This document shows, one piece after another, positions 9,071 to 61,509 of a stretch of 64,000 bases of DNA. Position 1 is the first letter of the stretch; the number at the start of each line of letters is the position of its first letter. Source of the stretch: Eledone cirrhosa. Lineage: Eukaryota. The notes under the pieces were generated by a model. The model had not been told where the DNA came from. It was given only the letters and a program-made list of their open reading frames with translations, and did not search any database. The stretch covers positions 7,192,001 through 7,256,000 of the forward strand of contig OZ024748.1 in assembly GCA_964016885.1 (NCBI GenBank). The letters run 5' to 3'. Both the position numbers and the translations under genes were made by a program.

Positions 9071-9433
9071 ATTAATGTCTGCGTGTAAGCTCAATTTGAC
9101 CAACATCTGCAATGTTTCCACCATTATTAATAATAATAATAATGAAATTATTGTGTACAGTGCTCAGGTGCACTACAACTCATCAAAGTACTTAATAGAG
9201 AATATAGGTTTCTTTGTGAGTATCTTATGTGATAAAGTATTGAACCAGCGAACTTCTGCCAAGCTGCAAGACTTTGTTTGACTTTAACAAAGTAGCTACT
9301 TATTGTTTTAGGTTCAAATCCAGCGTAAGAATTATTTGTTGTATGTTTCCGTCGTGTTTGTAAATATATATGGTATAGATGTATATATATATGTAGGTAG
9401 GTAGGTAGGTACGTACGTATATATATATATATA

Positions 9434-14045: not shown

Positions 14046-14419
14046 TTAAACACGTACCTATATTGGTGTGGAATTTTGTCGTCTATACCCCAGCCCTTGT
14101 GCTAATGATTGGGATCTCAATTATTTTTTAATTAATTCGAATTGGGTGGGGTTAGAAATTGAGAGCCGTTGGCTCAATTTCAATTACTGCTTTTTTCAAA
14201 AGCTAATCATTTGAAGTTCTTGTCTTCAATTGGTGTAACATTGTCTCACCAGACTCTGTAAATATAGTATAGGGACTGGATTGGACTGGATTGGTGTGGA
14301 TTTCACTGGGTACAACTGGGTAGGGTTGGTTGTAACCAGTTGTAGAAGGAGCAACAAACAGTCTATAGGTTTGGGTCAGAATAACGTTTAACATGTTCTA
14401 TTTTCTCTCAGTCTCGAGA

Positions 14420-14940: not shown

Positions 14941-15440
14941 TATATCTATCTATCTATCTAAGGCGGGTAAAATTCCCGAGATCCATGGACGAGCTCTCTC
15001 CAGCGGTCTCTGTCCCTCATTATCGCTGCCATATCCTGCATCTCCAACAGACCAGTGTCTGTCCTTAGGGCATCAACATATGTTGACCTTGGTCTTCCTC
15101 TTCTAGTGTGTCCATGTAGGGGCTCCCAAAGGAGCACTGAGTGCAATGTCAACTCTGGATGTCGGTGAGCATGTCCAGCCAACCTCAGTCTTCTCTGTGT
15201 CACTTTTGAGCTGACTTTTGGGATGCTCCCATACAGCTCTGAGTTTTTCATCCTCAGTGTATACTGATTAATGTTCAGAGCCATCCTCAGCATTCTCGTG
15301 TAGCACCCTTCCACCATCTGAGTGAGTCTCTTGGTCAGTGTCCAAGTCTCAGACCCACACAGCAGCACAGACTCCACTACAGCAATGAAGAGGCGGACCT
15401 TTAGGTCTCTACGAAGGTCCGACTTCCACACCGATCCCAT
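14941..15440 (-). mobile_element. 5'-truncated RTE-type LINE fragment (C-terminal ORF, (TAGA)n tail)
   Basis: ORF 14958-15440 contains KVRLFIAVVESVLLCGSETWTL, RRLRLAGHAHR and RRGRPR, typical of the RTE post-RT region. The stop codon runs into a tetranucleotide tail. Confidence 0.88.
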
Positions 15441-17545: not shown

Positions 17546-17682
17546 AATAATAATTGTTTCTACTTTTGGCACAAGGCCAGCAATTTAGTTAACTTTGCCT
17601 TTCATCCTTACGGGGTCGATAAAATAAAGCACCAGTAATAAAGTGGCTAATTGTTGGCCTTGTGCCAAAAGTAGAAACAATT

Positions 17683-17698
<16 letters not shown>
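17546..17698. mobile_element. SINE A 3' half (+) fused to an inverted SINE A 3' tip (-)
   Basis: 17546-17585 is the reverse complement of ~17649-17688. Confidence 0.85.
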
Positions 17699-19992: not shown

Positions 19993-20175
19993 TGGATTGG
20001 CAGTATTGGTAGAGGTTCGCACGCCATGCTTTGCAGCATAGAGTTACGGCCCTTTATGGTCTGAGTTCAAATTTCGCCGAGGTTAACTTTGCCTTTCATC
20101 CTTACGGGGTCGATAAAATAAAGTACCAGTAATACACTGTGATAATTGCTGGCCTTGTGCCAAAAGTAGAAATAA
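19993..20175 (+). mobile_element. SINE A with 19-bp TSD
   Basis: TSD attaattata(g/t)tctagcta at 19974-19992 and 20175-20193. Confidence 0.92.
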
Positions 20176-20633
20176 TTAATTATATTCTAGCTATACTTCA
20201 CAGCATATTTCTTGTTTGATTTTGCAGGTTTAAAGGATATTATAATTACAGTTTTCAATGTTGATATTATAATTACAGTTTTCAATGTTGGTATTAGTTT
20301 ATAAAATAGTTTATAATTACTACAAACCACAAAGAAAAACTAATAACAAAAAGAAATCCTGTAGGAATAATTAGAAGACAATTAAATATTGATACAATCT
20401 ATTGTATTTATAGATGTAAAATATAACAAAGTGATGGGTAGTCGTTGATATGTGTGTCTCTAAACAATATGATCAACATATGATAAAGACATCTCTCTCA
20501 GACATTCACTTCATGTCTACCCCTCCCCTCCCCCTCTCGCTCTCGCTCTCGCTCTCTCTATATATATATATATGTATCTATCTATCTAACTCCGTGTCTA
20601 TCTTTATATTTGATTATTTTTTTGCAACACACG

Positions 20634-30146: not shown

Positions 30147-30411
30147 GGAGTGCTCTCCCTGGGTGCCCTAGAAGCGCAGGGTGGTTCAGGATTGGTGGGG
30201 TACCCGAGTCACCCCAGGGTCGTCCACCCCCTATCGGGGAATTTATTTTGTTATATTTATGCATAGTTTATTTTATATTTTTATATCTTCATTTTTAAAT
30301 TAGTCTTGCCATTGTACACTTTTACTCGACCTTATTGTAAACCCCCACTGTCCCTGTCTTTGTATTGTCCTCTACACGTCGACCCTTGTGGCTAATAAAT
30401 GAAATCATTAT
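30147..30411 (+). mobile_element. 3'UTR-only fragment of the Tx1-like LINE
   Basis: Homologous to 59775-60010 (gggtgccctag...aaacccccactgtccctgtc...cccttgtggctaataaatgaaatcatt). Confidence 0.9.
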
Positions 30412-30603
30412 TTGGCAGTATTGGTAGAGAGTCGGACACCATGCTTTCCAGCATAGTTATGTCCCTTTATGATTTGAGCTCAAATCCCGCCGAGGTTAAC
30501 TTTGCCTTTCATCCTTACGAGGTCGATAAAATAAAGTACCAGTAATACACTGGGATAATTGCTGGCCTTGTGCCTAAAGTAGAAACAATTATAATTATTA
30601 TTA
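30412..30603 (+). mobile_element. SINE A inserted in the ATT tail of a LINE fragment
   Basis: Begins immediately after gaaatcattat of the 30147-30411 LINE piece. Confidence 0.9.
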
Positions 30604-40522: not shown

Positions 40523-41110
40523 GGTGGATTGGCTGTATCGGGAGAGGGTCGGACGCCATGCTTTCCAGCATAGTTACGTCCCTTTACCATCTGAGTTCAA
40601 ATCCCGCCGAGGTTGACTTTGCCTTTCATCCTTACGGGGGTCGATAAAATAAAGTACCAGTAATGTACTGGGTAATTGCTGGCCTTGTGCCAAAAGTAGA
40701 AACAGTTATTTACCATAGTCGGTGGATTGGCTGTATTGGTAGAGGGTCGGACGCCATGCTTTGACGCATAGAGTTACGGCCCTTGCCATTCTGAGTTCAA
40801 ATCCCGTCGAGGTTAACTTTACCTTTCATCCTTACGGGGGTCGATAAAATAAAGTACCAGTAATGTACTGGGTAATTGCTGGCCTTGTGCCAAAAGTAGA
40901 AACAGTTATTTACCATAGTCTCGTAGAGTGTCAGGCACCATGCTTGGCAGCATAGATTTGTGGCCCTTTACGTTCTGAGTTCAACTCCCACCGAGGTTAT
41001 CTTTGTCTTTCATGCTTACGCGGTCGATAAAATAAAATACCAGTAACGAACTGGGGTTGATATAATCGATTTTCCTCTCCCTCAAAATTGTTGGCCTTGT
41101 GCCTAGATCA
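40523..41110 (+). mobile_element. Head-to-tail SINE A dimer followed by an older SINE A-related copy
   Basis: Copies at 40523-40705, 40721-40905 and 40921-41110. Spacer ttatttaccatagtc occurs three times. Confidence 0.92.
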
Positions 41111-41111
41111 G

Positions 41112-41148
41112 CTACATTTCTGCCCTTGTGGCCAATAAATGAAATTAT
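41112..41148 (+). mobile_element. Ultra-short 3' tip of the Tx1-like LINE
   Basis: ctacatttctgcccttgtggccaataaatgaaattat matches the last ~40 nt of the LINE. Confidence 0.75.
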
Positions 41149-41424
41149 CCCTGGGTGCCCTAGAAGCGCAGGGTGGTTCAGGATTGGTGGGGTACCCGAG
41201 TCACCCCAGGGTCGTCCACACCCTATCGGGGAATTTATTTTGTTATATTTATGCATAGTTTATTTTATATTTGTATATCTTCATTGTTAAATTAGTCTTG
41301 CCATTGTGCACGTTTACTCAACCTTATTGTAAACCCCCACTGTCCCTGTCTTTGTATTGTCCCCTACATGTCGGCCCTTGTGGCTAATAAATGAAATCAT
41401 TATTATTATGATGATTATTATTAT
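41149..41424 (+). mobile_element. 3'UTR-only fragment of the Tx1-like LINE, near-identical to the 30.1 kb copy
   Basis: Same sequence as 30158-30411 with few substitutions; (ATT)n tail. Confidence 0.9.
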
Positions 41425-42044
41425 AAATATTATGAAACATTTTGTTATTCTCCTCAGCAAATACAAAATATATTCTTCAACCAACTATAACTAGCCACAC
41501 CAGTTCAATTAGTGTAACATATAGAAACGAGAGAGAGAGAGGAAGGAGGGAGATAGAATGTGAGAGAAAGACAGAGGGGGGGGGATTTGAGAGAACGAGA
41601 GAGAGTGGGAGAAGAGAAAGAGAGACAAAAAGAGAGAATCATCACTAATAATAGTAGACGGTAAAATCTCGCCAGTCTGAGGATAATTGTTTTTGAGCAG
41701 AATCTGATGTCTAGCATAAAACATCGAAGAATTGGTTGACTGGAAGCAGAGCGGTCTTCATGTCGCCACTAATAACATGCAAAGAACAAATATTGCAGAA
41801 ACGCCGTCTGGTTAACAGTTGAGACATCTGCTAGCTGGTTCTTTGACAAATTACTTTGTAGTCTCGCATCAAACAACCGACAGAGACATTGAGATAAACT
41901 GTCAGCAACAGAGAATTATCAATAGACCAACAGTGGCAGTAGTAAATCAGTAGTAGTGCAGCAGCAAAAGTAGAGCCGCAGCAATAGAGAATCAACAGCA
42001 GCAGTGATAGAACAGCAGAAATAGACCAAGTTTGGTTCATTTGT

Positions 42045-50699: not shown

Positions 50700-50790
50700 T
50701 ATGTAAAATCCCCGGCATATCTTTGTTTTGTCCCCTTTTCTTGTGCGCCCTTGTGGCAAATAAAGAAATCTCTCTCTCTCTCTCTCTCTC
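50700..50790 (+). mobile_element. 3' tip of a related LINE ending in (TC)n
   Basis: atgtaaaatcccc...ttgtcccc...gcccttgtggcaaataaagaaatc followed by (TC)n instead of (ATT)n. Confidence 0.7.
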
Positions 50791-52200: not shown

Positions 52201-52263
52201 ATAATTATAAATGTGAAGACTAAAATCCAAAGTGGGCTCGATAAGGATAAATATTTATCAAAT

Positions 52264-53383: not shown

Positions 53384-54025
53384 CACGCACTCGTTCAGTG
53401 CTCGATCGCGTGTAGAACTGATCCGGTTATCGACTGAGTCCATTGTGCAGATGGTCTCGCCGTCTTCCTTCGAGGAGGAAGGGCAGACGGTTTTCATCTG
53501 CCTGGTGGCCATGGTGAAAGAGATTGTGTGGTGGACAAGGTTAAAAGGGTTAAAGACAGACGTTTTCCTCTTCGGCGAAACCCTAATTAACTTTTTCAAG
53601 TTTCACTTGAAGAGGAAAATCAGGGTGGAGAGGCAAGTGCTGCCTTCTAGCAAGTTTGTTGAAAGGTGGGTGAAATGTAGCGAGAATGGTCCGAGTGAAC
53701 GGGACCGCTCTGAATATACGTCTGTAGTTTGAGAAATGGAAAAATTGAGAGAGGGCGCTTGCTCTGGTGGTCAGGGTGGCCGTGGTCTTTTGTGTGGTTT
53801 TCTCCACGAGTAAACCTCGGAGGTTTCCCCCTATTGGGAAATTTTTCATTGTTTCAATTTTCATTTTTATTGTTTATATATATATATGTTTCTATGTCTT
53901 TTTTTCTTTTCTTATATAAATAATAAAAATATTTACACGCACAAAACGGACATCGTACGGTCCTGTACCGTCCTGTGCCGTCTGTAATGTTTTTCTTGAT
54001 GTCAGCCCTTGTGGCCAATAAAGAA

Positions 54026-54066
<41 letters not shown>

Positions 54067-54081
54067 TATTATTATTATTAT
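53384..54081 (+). mobile_element. 5'-truncated, diverged copy of the same LINE lineage
   Basis: Aligns by eye to 59371-60025 (translation WWTRLKGLKTDVFLFGETLINFFKFHL). Has a deletion near its 5' end, a frameshift and a divergent 3'UTR. Ends GCCCTTGTGGCCAATAAAGAAATC(ATT)n. Confidence 0.92.
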
Positions 54082-54439
54082 GCTTCTTTTTTTCAGATCG
54101 AGACGCAGGTGAATTTCCTAAAATTGTGGTTGGAGGATGTTAAATACTTTCAATTTACAGCCAGTCAAGAAAGATGGCGACAGAACATTATTATACCACC
54201 AACAGTATTATTATTATTATTATTATTATTGACGAAAGTGGATGTACGTTTTTTGAAGCTCCGTGAGTAAGCAATTTTTGAGGATTAATTGTAGAGAATT
54301 GTTTATTTTTTGTACCGCTGAAGCATTATAAGACATTAATTTGTATCCTGTGAAGGAATAACTCATAATATTTGGGCCTTTTGGCCCAAATATTTGAACT
54401 TTATTTTGAAAAAAATAATAATTTTTTTCTCAAAAAAAC

Positions 54440-56302
54440 ATGGCGGAGCCACGCCCCCTAGAGGCGGGTCTGCTGTCGTGCAACGGCGACTTGAGCGTTG
54501 AGAGGAGAGGTGAGGCGAGGAGCGCCACCAGCACGAATGTGAGCAGCGACAGTGCCAGCACCAACGGGCCGAGCGGCGCGGAAGGTGGTAACAACGACAA
54601 CACCAACACCAACAAGCCGAACAGCGCAGAAGGTGGTAATAGCGAGAGCACCAACAAGGCCAACAGCACAGAAGGTAACCACGACACAGGGGAGAACAAC
54701 AACAGCAATAGCAGCAGCAACACCAACAAGAACAACAACAGTGACAACACCAACAAGAACACTTTCGCTGCTGTGGCAGCGGCTAAAAGGAGACCATGCT
54801 ACAGCATCGACTTAACCAACAGAGAGGAAAAGTTGGCCCAGGCCTGGAAAATCATAAACCAAGAGCAGACCTGGGCAAACTTAACTGTCCCGGCAGAAGC
54901 CATTGAGGCAGTGGAAAAAAGAACGGTGCATTTCAGATGCATCTCAGTAGAGACAAAGAGGGCAGCGATAATCGCCCAAGCTGACATAGAAGCCGCACTG
55001 AAATACATCAGAGAGGACACAGACTTCATAGAGAGGGGCAGGCAATACGGCACCGTTTCGGTGCTGTTCAAGTCTGAAGCCCTCGCTGTGAAGCATTCAA
55101 TGACCCCTTGCAAAACCAGCAAGGTCATAATGTACCCCTCCCACATGGGAAAACGAATAGCACGTGTGCGCATTCCCAGGATTCCACCAGGACTTGATAT
55201 GTGGTGGCTCCTGGGTTGCGTAATCGTGGAAGGAACGGATACAGTCCCGGTAGAGGCAACGAGAACTGCCAGGGACGACTGGTCCGGGGTTGATCTGGAG
55301 ATACTGCTCCAAATCAGACCCGAAAACGTAAAAACAATCCCGGACCACATCCGCCTCCAAAACGGGAGGGTGTTGCATATAATGACTGAGGGCAAAAGGC
55401 CGCATTGTTTCCTTTGTGGGGAAACGACACACTTGCGAGCCTTCTGCCCTCAACTGCCGAAAAGCGCAAGGGGTCGAAAGATTCCACTGCTGGCGACGCC
55501 GGGACAAGGACCACCAGCAACACCGTCAACAATGGAACCACCAAAATTGCACACCCAGGGGGGAAACGAGGAAAGCTCTCCCATTCCCCCTCCCCCCCAA
55601 AATACACACACGAACAAGAACATAAACACTCACTCAGACACAAACACGCTCACAGCCACAGACCCCTCATCCTCCAGCAGTGAAGATGAGGGAAAACCAA
55701 AGTCCCCCAAAATACAAAAAACAAAACACAAAAAAAAAAGAAATCCACAAAGCACAAACACCCCCACAAAAGAAAATACACACACCACCCACACAAACAT
55801 TTTCCCCACAGCATCACCAACACAACCACCAAAATCCCCCAAACGCAAACAAGCTAAACAGACACAAGAACAAATAGACACACAAACATCAGAAACTACA
55901 GACACCCCACCCACAACAAACGCAGACACAATAGAAACAACACTAACAAAGCTATCACCACCACAATCACACGAACAAATAAAACCCGAGCAACAAAACA
56001 TTAAAAACTTCGTGCTTGCCAGAAGGGCCAACAAGGAATTGATGGCCCATGTAGCACGAAGCACAAACATCGAAAAAGACGGGGAAACATTTGAAGCGAG
56101 CACATTTCGCGTACCAGATAATTTGCTTCTGATGCGAATGTCGCTCGCTTCATACAAAGAAATTCGAAAGAGCTTTCCTCGGGATGTGGGAACCCCGAAC
56201 GTAAAACCCACGTCAAGACTATTAAAGGGGTTCCCAAAAGAAACCCCACAAACCATGGAGGTCGAACCACCCGACCTTCACAAGACCCCGGAAGGTAAGT
56301 AA
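54440..56302 (+). CDS. LINE ORF1p, gag-like nucleic-acid-binding protein (620 aa)
   Basis: Single CCHC knuckle CFLCGETTHLRAFC (CX2CX4HX4C). N/S/T-rich N-terminus, possible RRM-like centre and a T/P/K-rich linker. Lies directly upstream of ORF2. Confidence 0.9.
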   Translation: MAEPRPLEAGLLSCNGDLSVERRGEARSATSTNVSSDSASTNGPSGAEGGNNDNTNTNKPNSAEGGNSESTNKANSTEGNHDTGENNNSNSSSNTNKNNNSDNTNKNTFAAVAAAKRRPCYSIDLTNREEKLAQAWKIINQEQTWANLTVPAEAIEAVEKRTVHFRCISVETKRAAIIAQADIEAALKYIREDTDFIERGRQYGTVSVLFKSEALAVKHSMTPCKTSKVIMYPSHMGKRIARVRIPRIPPGLDMWWLLGCVIVEGTDTVPVEATRTARDDWSGVDLEILLQIRPENVKTIPDHIRLQNGRVLHIMTEGKRPHCFLCGETTHLRAFCPQLPKSARGRKIPLLATPGQGPPATPSTMEPPKLHTQGGNEESSPIPPPPQNTHTNKNINTHSDTNTLTATDPSSSSSEDEGKPKSPKIQKTKHKKKRNPQSTNTPTKENTHTTHTNIFPTASPTQPPKSPKRKQAKQTQEQIDTQTSETTDTPPTTNADTIETTLTKLSPPQSHEQIKPEQQNIKNFVLARRANKELMAHVARSTNIEKDGETFEASTFRVPDNLLLMRMSLASYKEIRKSFPRDVGTPNVKPTSRLLKGFPKETPQTMEVEPPDLHKTPEGK

Positions 56303-56331
56303 ACCTTTCCTCTCCCATTCATCCTGCCAGC

Positions 56332-59300
56332 ATGGCCATAAGAGTAGGAAGTTTAAATGTTCGTGGCCTGGGGTCGCCCTGGAAGCAAGGTCACTTGCTC
56401 AACGACCTCAGGTCACTAGGAATGGATGTAATTGCCATCAGCGAGACCAGAATTTCCGACACACGCGCACTGGCGCCGATTTTCGACGATTATCAGATCT
56501 TTGCATCTGTTAGTCGGCCGGGAATGGGAGGTGGAGTGGCTGTGCTGTTTAGGAAATGTCTGGATCTCGAGGTAAGGTCAATCTTCCGGGATCCTGACGG
56601 AAAGTTGGTGGTCCTGGACGTGAGCAATAGCGAAGGTGGTGCCTTTAGACTGGTGGCCGTCTACGCCCCTACTGGGGCCGGTCGGCCGGACTTCTTTAGG
56701 CGCCTGGAAAACTTTCTGCTTACGTCTCGCCCTTTACTGTTAATAGGGGATTGGAATGGCATCTTAGAAGCACGCTGGGATTGTGTGGGAGTATCTGATA
56801 GGAGCGGGGGGTGCAAAAGCCTCAAGTACCTGATCAGCCAGTTTCAACTGTCTGACAGGTACCGACTAGATTTCCCTAATGCGCCAGTATGGACCTGGAC
56901 CAATCGCATAGGGTCATCTAGATCGTACATAGATAGGATTTTCATTAGGAAAAGAGATAGAAATAGTGTAGGATGTCCACATTTTAAAACGGTTGCCTAT
57001 TCAGATCACAAGCTTGTGATCTGTATGGTCGACCTAGATAAGACACGTAGGTTAGGACCTAGCTACTGGAAGCTAAACATGTCGTTTCCGGCACGTAAAG
57101 CTTACAGGGACCGGGTCAACAACTTAGTTAAGCAAAAGTTGACAGGGGGGGTTGTCAACAACAGGTGGTGGGGGGCACTCAAAAGAGAGATTAGAGCAAC
57201 CTCGATAGGATTTAGCAAAGAAGTAGCAATAGAGAAAAATAGAAAGGAGGAGGGGCTGATAGCTAAGTTAGACGAGGCTATTTGTAGTGGCATTGCAACA
57301 GACGTGCTAGCGGCGAGAATGGCACTAGACCATTTCTTCAATGCGAAACACGAAGGTTGCATTGTCAGAGCTAAGGCGCGTGCTCTGAGGAACGAGGGAA
57401 CCAAAGCTGCCCGATGGGCTCGCTTTGCAGAGACGCAGCGTGGAAATAAAACCACAATTCGGTCTTTGACGGATCGAGATGGACACGAACTGAGCGATTC
57501 CAAGCGGATGTGTGAGGCCTTTCGCCAGCACTTTGCTCGATTGTTCGGGAGGATGGGTGAGTCGGAGATGGCGGCGGACTTCAGTCCCTACCTCGACGGC
57601 TTGCCACGCCTCTCGACGGCCGACGCTGAGCGCTGCGAAGAGCCGATAACATCAGCCGAAATTCAGGACGCCCTTGTCGGCTGCTCGAGTCGCAAGTCAC
57701 CCGGTTTGGATGGTCTGCCCTACGAGCTTTACGTAAATATGCCAGACTTGTTCTCCGATCTCCTCGAAGCGCTCTACTGCAACTGGCAGCAGAACGGGAG
57801 CATTCCCAGTTCTGTGAGCCGTGGCGTAGTGACGCTGATAAGGAAAGACGAGAACAAGAGGGACACACTAGATAATTTCAGGCCCATAACCCTGCTCAAC
57901 ACAGAGTTTAAGATTTTGGCCAAGGTGTTAGCGAAAAGGTTGGCGCTTGTCGTCAAAGATTTGGTTGGGGAGGCGCAAACTTGCGCAATCCCGACCAGGT
58001 CCATACACGACAACCTCCACCTCATGCGATACATCATAGAGAGGGTTGGGTGCAAACCTGGCTTCGGTGGGGCTCTGATCAATTTAGATCAATCGAAAGC
58101 ATTCGATAGGGTCGACCATCGGTACTTGGAGGCTGTCCTCGAGGCGGCTGGCTTCGGCCCCGTCTTCAGAAGCTGGATCGCTGCAATGTACAGCGGCATC
58201 CGCTCGGTGGTCAAAGTTAATGGCCACCTCTCGGAACCGTTTCAGATCTCTCGATCGGTCCGTCAAGGGTGCCCTCTCTCCTCACTTCTGTACGTATTGA
58301 CTCTTGAGCCTCTACTGCGGAAGCTGGAGTTGTTGCAGGGCATCCCGCTCGAACCGGGACGTAGAAAGGCTGCGTCCGCTTATGCGGACGACATCACCGT
58401 GATGGTGTCGGACACCTCGGAAATCGAGGTGATCCGCACCCATTTGGAGGAATATGAAAGGTTGACGGGAGCAAAACTTAACCCGGAAAAGTCGGTGGGC
58501 TTGCAGCTCGGCACCTGGAGAGGCAAGTCCATGCCGTCCAACAGCGTCGTTGGGCGCTGGACAGACGGACCGGTAAAGTTGCTCGGGGTTTGGTTCGGAC
58601 CAGACCTCCAGGTGGATAAGAATTGGGACGAGGTGACGAGCAGGATAGCCAACCTCACCCAGAAATGGGCTGAGAGAAAGCTATCACTGAAAGGGCGGGC
58701 GGAGGTGGCGAACGCGTACATCGCGTCCGTCATCTACTACCGCCTGACCGTCGTGCCTTGCCCCCGTCCACGCCTCGCCAATTTGGAACGGCTCCTTTTC
58801 AAATTTTTGTGGAGGGGACGGGTCCCGTTGGTGAGGCGGTCCATCTGCTGCCAGCACCCTCTTCGTGGAGGGCTGGGCATGCCGTGGCTAATGATGCGCA
58901 GACATGCGCTGAGGCTGCGACATCTCCAGATATTTTGCCTAAACGGTGAACAGGTGTGGTCGCCGTTTGTTAGACGGGCCTTTCCGCAGCTCATCTCTTT
59001 GACTGAGCTGCAGTCCTGGGTCAAGAAGAGACCGAGACTGGGCGACTGGCATCTGGAATGTTGCCAGGCGCTCACTGCACTCTGCAAGGTGGGCAATGCG
59101 GTCAGTGGAACTTCCACTCAAGATTTCTATAGAGGATTAGTGGAGGGCAAGTGCGATGACGTACTAGGAGAGGCTCTGGGCGTCAACGAAGTAGAACTGA
59201 CCAGTATGTTCCGGAGGACTTTCGAGCCGGGGACGATGGATAACTTCCAGAAATCCCTCGCTTGGCAGTGCTACCGGGGGGCGCTGCCGGTTCGGGATAA

Positions 59301-59751
59301 ACTCTACAGGCACGGAAGTGCTGTCAGACGAACCTGCCCGAGATGCGCGCAGAGCGACGAAACCGTTCTGCACGCACTCGTCCAGTGTCCGTGCATTGCT
59401 GACTTGTGGGGTTATGTCGAACAGCTATTGTCGCGTGTAGAACGGATCCGGCTATCGTCCGAGTCCATAGTGAAGATTGACCCGCCGCCTTCTTTTGGTC
59501 AGGAAGGGCAGGCAATTTTCCTCTGCCTGGTGGCAGTAGCGAAAGAGGTTGCATGGTGGACCAGGTTGAAAGGACTGAAGACAGACACTTTTCTCTTCGG
59601 CCAATCCCTCATCAACTTCTTCAAGTTTCACTTGGAAAGGAAGGTGAGGGTGGAGAGAGAAGTGCTGCCCCCCAGTACATTTACTGAAAGGTGGGTGAAT
59701 GTGGCGAGAATGGCCCGCGTGAGTGGGCCTACTCTGATCATGCGCCTGTAG
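56332..59751 (+). CDS. LINE ORF2p: APE endonuclease + reverse transcriptase + C-terminal zinc finger (1139 aa)
   Basis: APE motifs: SLNVRG, SET, VYAP, GDWN, SYIDRIF, SDH. RT motifs: KSPGLDG, FRPITLLN, LDQSKAFDRVDH, VRQGCPLS, YADD. C-terminal CPRC-x8-H-x4-C. Confidence 0.97.
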   Translation: MAIRVGSLNVRGLGSPWKQGHLLNDLRSLGMDVIAISETRISDTRALAPIFDDYQIFASVSRPGMGGGVAVLFRKCLDLEVRSIFRDPDGKLVVLDVSNSEGGAFRLVAVYAPTGAGRPDFFRRLENFLLTSRPLLLIGDWNGILEARWDCVGVSDRSGGCKSLKYLISQFQLSDRYRLDFPNAPVWTWTNRIGSSRSYIDRIFIRKRDRNSVGCPHFKTVAYSDHKLVICMVDLDKTRRLGPSYWKLNMSFPARKAYRDRVNNLVKQKLTGGVVNNRWWGALKREIRATSIGFSKEVAIEKNRKEEGLIAKLDEAICSGIATDVLAARMALDHFFNAKHEGCIVRAKARALRNEGTKAARWARFAETQRGNKTTIRSLTDRDGHELSDSKRMCEAFRQHFARLFGRMGESEMAADFSPYLDGLPRLSTADAERCEEPITSAEIQDALVGCSSRKSPGLDGLPYELYVNMPDLFSDLLEALYCNWQQNGSIPSSVSRGVVTLIRKDENKRDTLDNFRPITLLNTEFKILAKVLAKRLALVVKDLVGEAQTCAIPTRSIHDNLHLMRYIIERVGCKPGFGGALINLDQSKAFDRVDHRYLEAVLEAAGFGPVFRSWIAAMYSGIRSVVKVNGHLSEPFQISRSVRQGCPLSSLLYVLTLEPLLRKLELLQGIPLEPGRRKAASAYADDITVMVSDTSEIEVIRTHLEEYERLTGAKLNPEKSVGLQLGTWRGKSMPSNSVVGRWTDGPVKLLGVWFGPDLQVDKNWDEVTSRIANLTQKWAERKLSLKGRAEVANAYIASVIYYRLTVVPCPRPRLANLERLLFKFLWRGRVPLVRRSICCQHPLRGGLGMPWLMMRRHALRLRHLQIFCLNGEQVWSPFVRRAFPQLISLTELQSWVKKRPRLGDWHLECCQALTALCKVGNAVSGTSTQDFYRGLVEGKCDDVLGEALGVNEVELTSMFRRTFEPGTMDNFQKSLAWQCYRGALPVRDKLYRHGSAVRRTCPRCAQSDETVLHALVQCPCIADLWGYVEQLLSRVERIRLSSESIVKIDPPPSFGQEGQAIFLCLVAVAKEVAWWTRLKGLKTDTFLFGQSLINFFKFHLERKVRVEREVLPPSTFTERWVNVARMARVSGPTLIMRL

Positions 59752-60240
59752 GCTGGTGAATTCGAGAAGGAGAGGGGTGCCCTTCCCGGGTGCCCTAGGA
59801 GCGTCGGGTGGCTCAGGACTGGTGGGGTGCTTGAGTCAACCCTGGGTGGTGATCCCTCTTATTGGGGAACTTTCATTGTTGTATTTTTATTGTTATTTTG
59901 TTTTTTTGTTATTTATACTTACTCGATCTCTATGTAAACCCCCACTGTCCCTGTCTATTGTGTTGTCCCCTATATGTCGGCCCTTGTGGCCAATAAATGA
60001 AATCATTATTATTATTATTATTATTTAATGTTCTCTCTCTCTCTCTCTTTCCCTCTCTCTCTCCCTCTCTCTCTCTATGTGAGCACTGAACTTTTCATCA
60101 GGAAAAAACAAAAGAAAACACATTTTTGAAAAAGAAATAAAAAGAAGGAAAGAAAAAGAAGGAACACTTCGTTATTTTTACTTTTGAAAGCAAATGTTGA
60201 GAGACAAAAGATGACAAAGATGATGTGTTAATACAAGCGA

Positions 60241-61319: not shown

Positions 61320-61509
61320 AATAATTATTTTTACTTTTGGCACAAGGCCAGCAATTACCCAGTGTATTACTGGTACTTTATTTTATCGACCCTGTAAGGA
61401 TGAAAGGCAAAGTAAACCTCGGCGGGATTTGAACTCAGACCATAAAGGGCCGTAAATCTTTGCTGCAAAACATGGCGTCCGACCCTCTACCGATACTGCC
61501 AATCCACCA
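61320..61509 (-). mobile_element. SINE A
   Basis: Family match; caattaa(a/t)taat on both flanks. Confidence 0.9.

Follow-up and report, generated by a model that had tools for sequence, protein, structure and literature searches.

Sharing of a 3′ tail between a SINE and a LINE is a textbook kind of relationship, and such pairs have so far been described mainly for LINE groups other than Tx1. The octopus SINEs OK, OR1 and OR2 are said to have been described by Ohshima and Okada in 1994. In the L2 clade, assays on zebrafish ZfL2-1 and ZfL2-2 and on the eel UnaL2/UnaSINE pair are reported to show that the loop of the 3′ hairpin is read specifically and that the stem is exchangeable if it pairs, with a short terminal repeat present (Hayashi et al. 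2014, PMC4176376). We use these systems as the working model for the pair described below, in which the hairpin is much smaller (3–4 bp) and is known from sequence alone. Within the L1 group, according to the sources cited, hairpin tails are shared with tRNA SINEs in maize and sorghum (ZmSINE2 and ZmSINE3 with LINE1-1_ZM) and in Chlamydomonas (SINEX-3_CR with L1-1_CR) (PMC3472496, PMC3747384). The present case resembles these in its L1-group LINE, its conserved hairpin and loop, its compensatory stem changes, a tail in common with tRNA SINEs and a stringency deduced from sequence, the evidence for maize L1 being similar in kind to that for Tx1 here (PMC3472496), but it differs in its animal host and in a tail repeat, (ATT)n, that doubles as the target. 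That the L1 group was stringent first and became relaxed later is presented as a proposal, still open, that rests on three SINEs of plants and algae (PMC3472496).

Crocodilian SINEU elements were assigned to Tx1-Mar through target preference and age overlap (Kojima 2015, PMC4494074). By that account, SINEU-1 and SINEU-2 display a weaker preference than SINEU-3 and the presumed Tx1 driver, as SINE A does relative to Tx1 in our data, but SINEU elements have snRNA heads and poly(A) tails, whereas SINE A has a tRNA-type head and a hairpin tail in common with the LINE; for the 3′ half of SINEU-1, no matching LINE in Repbase is reported there (PMC4494074). Microsatellite-specific Tx1 elements include Kibi in (TC)n, Koshi in (TTC)n and crocodilian elements in (TTCC)n or (TTTC)n (PMC4494074, PMC3812793); they likewise insert into simple repeats, but the targets here are (ATT)n and, for a sister branch, probably (ATCT)n, and the pertinent part of one source lists TAA repeats as a target only for Dong elements (PMC3812793). 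Octopus annotations describe tRNA-Deu and tRNA-CORE classes of SINEs and an L1-Tx1 group recently active in O. vulgaris (PMC8967140, PMC13282606), and the repeat content of the genome analyzed here fits these accounts. Like SINE A, the octopus SINEs (OK, OR1, OR2 and the tRNA-Deu and tRNA-CORE classes) are tRNA-derived and very abundant, and the passages concerned name no partner LINE. The literature searched named neither a partner LINE for an octopus SINE of the SINE A type nor a tail-sharing Tx1/SINE pair, although Repbase, Dfam and SINEBase, which lay outside the search, may list one.

We analyzed a window of 64,000 nt from Eledone cirrhosa (the whole stretch of DNA under study, whose numbering is used throughout) and sampled Tx1 relatives and rival LINEs from 80 evenly spaced 10-kb stretches of the genome (0.8 Mb of 3 Gb). 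The window contains an intact two-ORF L1/Tx1-type LINE of a young subfamily, A, at 54231–60025 (+; 5774 bp plus the ATT tail), and many of its relatives, with 60–80% amino acid identity, were found in the sampled stretches. ORF1 (54440–56302, +, 620 aa) has no Pfam match but carries one C-x2-C-x4-H-x4-C knuckle, CFLCGETTHLRAFC, which we take to be a trait of the Tx1 clade; its Atlas look-alikes are CCHC or ZCCHC3-type RNA-binding clusters (0.89–0.92). ORF2 (56332–59751, +, 1139 aa) has the features of the L1/Tx1 group, namely an APE endonuclease, a reverse transcriptase and a C-terminal zinc-binding domain (zf-RVT) in Pfam, together with human L1 ORF2p as its closest solved structure (E 6e-57; R2 proteins, E 5e-22). 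Its best named relative, at 69% identity, is from Argonauta hians. The label Tx1 rather than L1 is suggested by architecture and targeting; among the relatives brought up by the searches there was no named Tx1 reference. A preference for simple-repeat targets, a Tx1-like trait, is found in subfamily A: the window copy is preceded by an (ATT)8 run (54207–54230, +), either the target or a hidden target duplication, and in 16/16 of the other full-length copies whose 5′ flank could be seen (20 were fetched whole), (ATT)4 or more lies upstream, this run often being another element's tail (Tx1 or SINE). The last 189 aa of ORF2 have at least 150 genomic matches at 100% identity, many with the full 1150-aa frame. 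In subfamily A, as many as six full-length copies also lie head to tail in arrays with a period of ~5.84 kb (for example G000:C1:423.38–423.42 Mb and C4:311.42–311.45 Mb; L315–L326), joined by C(ATT)5–6 at 9/9 inner junctions listed, and these reflect either targeting of its own tail or unequal recombination.

At the 3′ end of the window copy, a GGCC-CTTGT-GGCC hairpin (59979–59991, +; GGCC 59979–59982, CTTGT 59983–59987, GGCC 59988–59991) is followed by AATAAATGAAATC, with AATAAA and GAAA, and by (ATT)7 at 60005–60025 (59992–60025 in all), as a preliminary description of this DNA had it; the AATAAA is likely a poly(A) signal. Six Tx1-type termini occur in the window, and CTTGT forms the loop in all six (30385, 41125, 41377, 50750, 54008 and 59983). 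They include the ATT-tailed AGCC-CTTGT-GGCC end of a 5′-truncated subfamily D copy (53385–54080, +), the GGCC-CTTGT-GGCT end of a 5′-truncated subfamily B 3′ UTR (41150–41425, +, with a second tail fragment at 41112–41145), a further subfamily B 3′ UTR with a SINE copy directly after it (30147–30410, +) and a terminus of a sister type, CGCC-CTTGT-GGCA followed by (TC)n (50723–50770, +). Among the six, the stem is mismatched at 30385 (GACC/GGCT), (TC)n stands at the end of one and one lacks a tail run. Elsewhere in the window, GGGATCTC and AATT come after an AGC-CCTTGT-GCT hairpin (14050–14125, +) that has no relative in the fetched loci.

Beyond the window, Tx1 tails are of two types, (ATT)n and (ATCT)n, and copies bearing them separated with support 100/98 in a tree of 13 hand-picked Tx1 copies. 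The (ATT)n-tailed elements have the stems GGCC/GGCC, GGCC/GGCT, AACC/GGTT and AGCC/GGCC, with the loop CTTGT throughout these four main types (158 tails from fetched loci, some overlapping), whereas the (ATCT)n-tailed elements have CTGGT, CCTGT, CTAGT or CTTGT. The loop had been described as identical in the six window termini and in the younger SINE copies, which holds, but it varies in this sister branch. It had also been noted that the stems differ and yet pair. When covariation was examined, as had been proposed, three of the four pairs were found to have changed on both sides, with a score of 0.317 reached in 4/500 shuffles (slid controls, at most 0.083), a score that kinship inflates since the 13 tails compared (10 Tx1, 2 SINE and 1 unassigned) are related and were chosen by the analyst. 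A conserved 3′ stem-loop with compensatory changes, a trait of stringent LINEs, is present in these Tx1 copies. Identity among the 13 Tx1 copies was 78% in the terminal module and 59% in the rest of the 3′ UTR, a difference that is inflated because the module includes the AATAAA stretch, which may be retained for its role as a poly(A) signal. Exact ATT-type Tx1 tails number 2,819 and 8,542 genome-wide for two search patterns, with none for the controls.

SINE A is a non-coding, tRNA-type element of ~190 bp with an A/B-box-like head, a repeat tail and target duplications. In an all-against-all census no other family was as deep, and its 183 matches in 800 kb make up 3.2% of the bases. Neither ARAGORN nor Rfam called a tRNA in the head, where the boxes were spotted by eye against what we take to be the A/B box consensus, and the body may resemble a Deu domain. 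Three SINE A motifs are absent from four of the five supplement files of a Deu comparison (PMC4758252), the part of that source compared here. A second, rarer tRNA SINE with a different tail was seen at L096:3756–3958 (depth 25 in the sample). SINE A ends in TGGC-CTTGT-GCC[A/T]-AAAGTAGAAACA(ATT)n, with 137,752 exact tails genome-wide. The preliminary description had given this end as TGGC-CTTGT-GCCA plus (ATT)n, citing 20150–20180, in a copy at 19994–20178 (+; hairpin 20150–20162), and 40680–40710, within two tandem copies (40526–40908, +) that have a 15-bp duplication, TTATTTACCATAGTC, before, between and after them. The motif is present at both sites, but the tails there have decayed (to GAAATAATTAAT and GAAACAGTTAT, respectively), and the window has 15 exact TGGC-CTTGT-GCC hairpins, 9 of them continuing as GCCA and 6 as GCCT, the latter leaving a stem of only 3 bp. 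Further copies include one of the GCCT type that abuts the ATT tail of a Tx1-B element (30411–30591, +), one with the A-box-like TGGCAGTATCGG and the B-box-like GTTCAAATCC (61322–61505, −) and a 5′-truncated one with an (ATT)6 tail (17588–17697, +; tail 17655–17697). In the SINE copies at 17551–17683 of the window and at L066:8003–8245, the 5′ part is inverted, which resembles twin priming.

Two forms of SINE A can be distinguished. The long form (15/80 copies) has a median divergence of 12.7% from its majority sequence (about 11–13%), and the short form (65/80) one of 6.6%, with subfamily medians of 3.8–6.6%. The short form lost ~25 nt just upstream of the hairpin but retained the hairpin itself, and the loop and inner stem are common to both. 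In a young subfamily, 591 copies are identical over 139 nt, and the youngest type has a stem of only 3 bp.

We compared the last 25 nt of GCCA-type SINE A with 13 LINE ends, some of the RTE ends being placed roughly: the six Tx1 tails gave shuffle P values of <0.0002 to 0.012 and the seven other ends (CR1-like, RTE and RTE-X-like) 0.38–0.70, and two other SINE A types showed the same pattern. SINE A shares 16–17 of 25 ungapped identities with subfamilies C and D, and its loop-to-tail distance of 21 nt equals theirs (22 in A and B), bearing out the earlier remark that this spacing is similar. Because ATCT-tailed Tx1 match the SINE tail equally well, the score does not single out the ATT branch; the repeat and the loop do. 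A LINE tail with a better match had been named as an observation that would speak against the pairing, but 0/7 of the other LINE ends rose above chance, and among the sampled LINEs no better donor appeared; the CR1-like, RTE and RTE-X-like ends were rejected as donors on this ground. The stretch common to SINE A and Tx1 is only 25 nt long, and folding energies were ordinary in nine short folds (z between −1.3 and +1.0), as might be expected if unrelated tails had come to be alike by chance or convergence. Such an origin is nevertheless extremely improbable given a shuffle P of at most 2e-4, a register anchored to the tail, and a repeat unit and target in common. The tail shared by SINE A and ATT-tailed Tx1 is real.

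The insertion sites bear on which enzyme copied SINE A. In 60 of 77 random full-length copies the start of the tail was defined; 23 of these 60 had duplications of at least 10 bp (mean 1.8 in a mismatched control; median 16 bp), of which 20 begin with ATTA, preceded by C in 12, T in 7 and A in 1. Among the first 30 young copies, 17 had duplications of 10–19 bp (control, 1.1), a count that misses a few copies through 5′-end placement, and 17/17 begin with ATTA. For the L1 clade, duplications of 7–18 bp with a mode of 13–15 have been cited (PMC6007223, citing Ichiyanagi and Okada 2008). ATTA was present in the 5′ flank of 40/60 SINE A (67%), 26/38 Tx1 (68%; the 38 of 86 copies with resolved 5′ junctions, searched within 30 nt) and 5/17 CR1-like copies, against a background of 13%, the flank windows being slightly unequal between the sets. 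SINE A and Tx1 both begin at ATT, but Tx1 prefers long runs, in which the length of its duplication is hidden: at least 15 nt of ATT lay ahead in 33/35 junctions of full-length Tx1, and (ATT)4 or more was found in the flank of 12/38 truncated Tx1 and 16/16 full-length A copies but only 6/90 SINE A, whereas duplications with non-repeat sequence occurred in 30/90 SINE A and 3/38 Tx1. Because the hairpin and ATT tail are held in common and the ATT insertion sites are similar, SINE A was likely copied by a Tx1 enzyme.

The same data weigh against a young CR1-like LINE whose GC-closed hairpin, GTGC-ACCTGA-GCAC, also precedes (ATT)n (9129–9190, −). This LINE is ATT-tailed, abundant and young (150 matches at 99–100% amino acid identity among the matches listed), and CR1 and L2 elements dominate the published SINE/LINE pairs (PMC3747384 Table 1, the part of that source drawn on here). 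As a partner of SINE A it is nonetheless very improbable: its tail similarity is at the null level (P 0.24–0.60), its loop differs, and among its copies (30 fetched, 27 usable, 17 resolved) there were no long ATT runs and 0/17 ATTA-starting duplications, as opposed to 17/30 young SINE A (Fisher P 7e-5). The insertion signature largely refutes this partnership. In this LINE (L046, L094, L191–L220 and the window copy), the end of the 3′ UTR is tandemly duplicated, each unit with a hairpin and an ATT repeat.

Several other insertions were recorded. Two Dong/R4-like elements, classed by eye from translation, lie in ATT runs on the opposite strand (L001, L018, L144, L147), so that their own tail reads (AAT)n, and were rejected as donors; copies of all three kinds, Tx1, SINE and Dong-like, accumulate in these runs. 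At L035, a short RTE ending in TAG(ATAG)n has the same relation to the ATCT-tailed Tx1 branch as the Dong/R4-like elements have to the ATT runs, and a short RTE-type 3′ fragment with the same ending lies at 14958–15440 (−) of the window. Tail-only insertions of 25–30 nt with ATTA-starting duplications of 13–17 bp were found for the Tx1 type (L068) and the SINE type (L328, L330, L343). At L357:5900–9700 (G000:C1:98.149–98.153 Mb), the 5′ 3.8 kb of a Tx1 joins, in mid-ORF2, a 28-nt SINE tail plus ATT run, and the remainder of the LINE is absent within 7.4 kb; this junction reflects either a genomic deletion or a template switch that passed from SINE RNA to that of the LINE.

Ages distinguish the Tx1 lineage from the window copy. 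Sixty Tx1 tails were taken in order along the genome, and 47 of them formed five clusters with median divergences of 0, 1.5, 2.2, 2.8 and 4.9%, values biased toward young copies by the selection of exact tails. Subfamily A is 0–1% diverged and hence postdates most SINE A copies (about 4–7%; youngest, <1%). Subfamilies B and D and older forms overlap in age with the bulk of SINE A, and the youngest SINE A with A and C, an overlap seen at the level of the lineage in small samples. The preliminary description had proposed that the L1/Tx1-type reverse transcriptase of the window LINE drives SINE A, with overlapping age profiles as a check. Tail, covariation, ATTA duplications and ages agree with such a role for the lineage, but not for this particular enzyme, since subfamily A is too young and is bound to (ATT)n runs that are long, whereas most SINE A copies are older and lie at short ATTA sites. 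Subfamily A is therefore unlikely to be the main driver of SINE A, and the partner is likely the ATT-tailed Tx1 lineage over time.

The unequal target strictness of SINE A and the sampled Tx1, the ~12 to 1 excess of SINE tails over exact ATT-type Tx1 tails and the SINE A peak that is older than subfamily A would also fit an extinct or unsampled LINE whose tail is closer and whose ATTA targeting is looser, the sampled Tx1 being relatives or look-alikes. We regard this as improbable. A hybrid pattern combining LINE-type context with the SINE-type stem had 0 matches, and a Tx1 family with such a stem was accordingly rejected (a single tail was seen at L108). Moreover, 653 SINE-type tails lack the usual upstream bases, and the first 30 of them (23 on SINE bodies, 6 short or tail-only and 1 fused to a Tx1 ORF2) included no repeated LINE 3′ UTR; the ATT-ended repeats in a 0.86 Mb census were only SINE A, Tx1, the CR1-like LINE and one unexplained family. 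SINE bodies with Tx1 tails do not form a family either: only four exist genome-wide (L281–L284), with no clear duplications and with the switch inside the shared CCTTGTG, which points to microhomology joining or template switching. Among 98 ATCT-preceded sites, no other SINE emerged as a partner of the ATCT branch. A repeat that ends in TCGAGCCCTCTTTGGATTTTAGTCTTCAAATTT, with (ATT)n and (TA)n after it, was present in 12 copies (L032, L043, L053 and seven other loci; near 52250, −, in the window). Taken together, we hold an L1/Tx1-type lineage to be the partner of SINE A with good confidence.

Whether the hairpin itself is recognized is a separate question. The window LINE hairpin has a predicted pair probability of 0.95–0.99 within its 3′ UTR, and the predicted closing-pair probability is 0.53–0.95 in 7/8 Tx1 UTRs (37 °C) and 0.05 in subfamily B. 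In whole SINE A RNA the corresponding medians are 0.08 (GCCA, n=28), 0.05 (GCCT, n=13) and 0.03 (13 young copies), and only folds of the last 55 nt reach about 0.5–0.6; protein binding or local folding could stabilize the hairpin. These low values, the 3-bp stem of the youngest SINE A subfamily and the second stem pair, at which SINE A differs from every Tx1 stem, suit a relaxed Tx1 enzyme for which only pairing of (AUU)n with the nicked ATT matters, the SINE hairpin being a relic of a captured tail and the LINE hairpin perhaps kept for 3′-end processing beside AATAAA. On balance this seems rather unlikely: the loop and the inner three pairs persist from the long SINE, 11–13% diverged, down to the youngest of the short SINEs, with changes at neighboring positions, the Tx1 stems covary, and the CR1-like LINE, which has an AUU tail too, gave no ATTA-starting duplication in 17 (cis preference could mask such an effect). 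Stringent loop recognition by Tx1 ORF2p is plausible, and we lean toward a hairpin-dependent recognition of SINE A by the Tx1 lineage.

We favor, with moderate confidence, a model in which ORF2p of ATT-tailed Tx1 would copy SINE A in trans, binding the CUUGU hairpin and priming on (AUU)n at ATTA sites. An older form of the SINE would have acquired its tail from a Tx1 ancestor, and AATAAA, needless in a Pol III transcript, would have been lost. ORF2p would nick the strand opposite Y^ATTA, the AUU repeat of the RNA would pair with the freed end, and cleavage of the second strand ~16 nt further on would yield the target duplication. The long AUU tail of the LINE may favor long (ATT)n runs, while the one or two units of the SINE may tolerate short ATTA sites. 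Successive subfamilies would have served as drivers, B, D and older forms being followed by A and C, with A accounting at most for the youngest SINE A copies.

More tentatively, an animal Tx1-type reverse transcriptase may read a minimal CUUGU hairpin of 3–4 bp together with a target-naming (AUU)n end, and so drive the dominant SINE of an octopod. If true, this would be the first stringent partnership of the L1/Tx1 group in animals and would support stringency as the ancestral state of L1; with a tail-sharing Tx1/SINE pair in an animal whose LINE copies are young and intact, the stringent-first proposal becomes testable by reporter. The ATT and ATCT branches would offer a natural two-branch system for the coevolution of tail repeat and target. 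The pairing would also name the engine of a SINE that fills ~3% of the genome and explain why SINE, Tx1 and Dong-like copies pile up in ATT runs.
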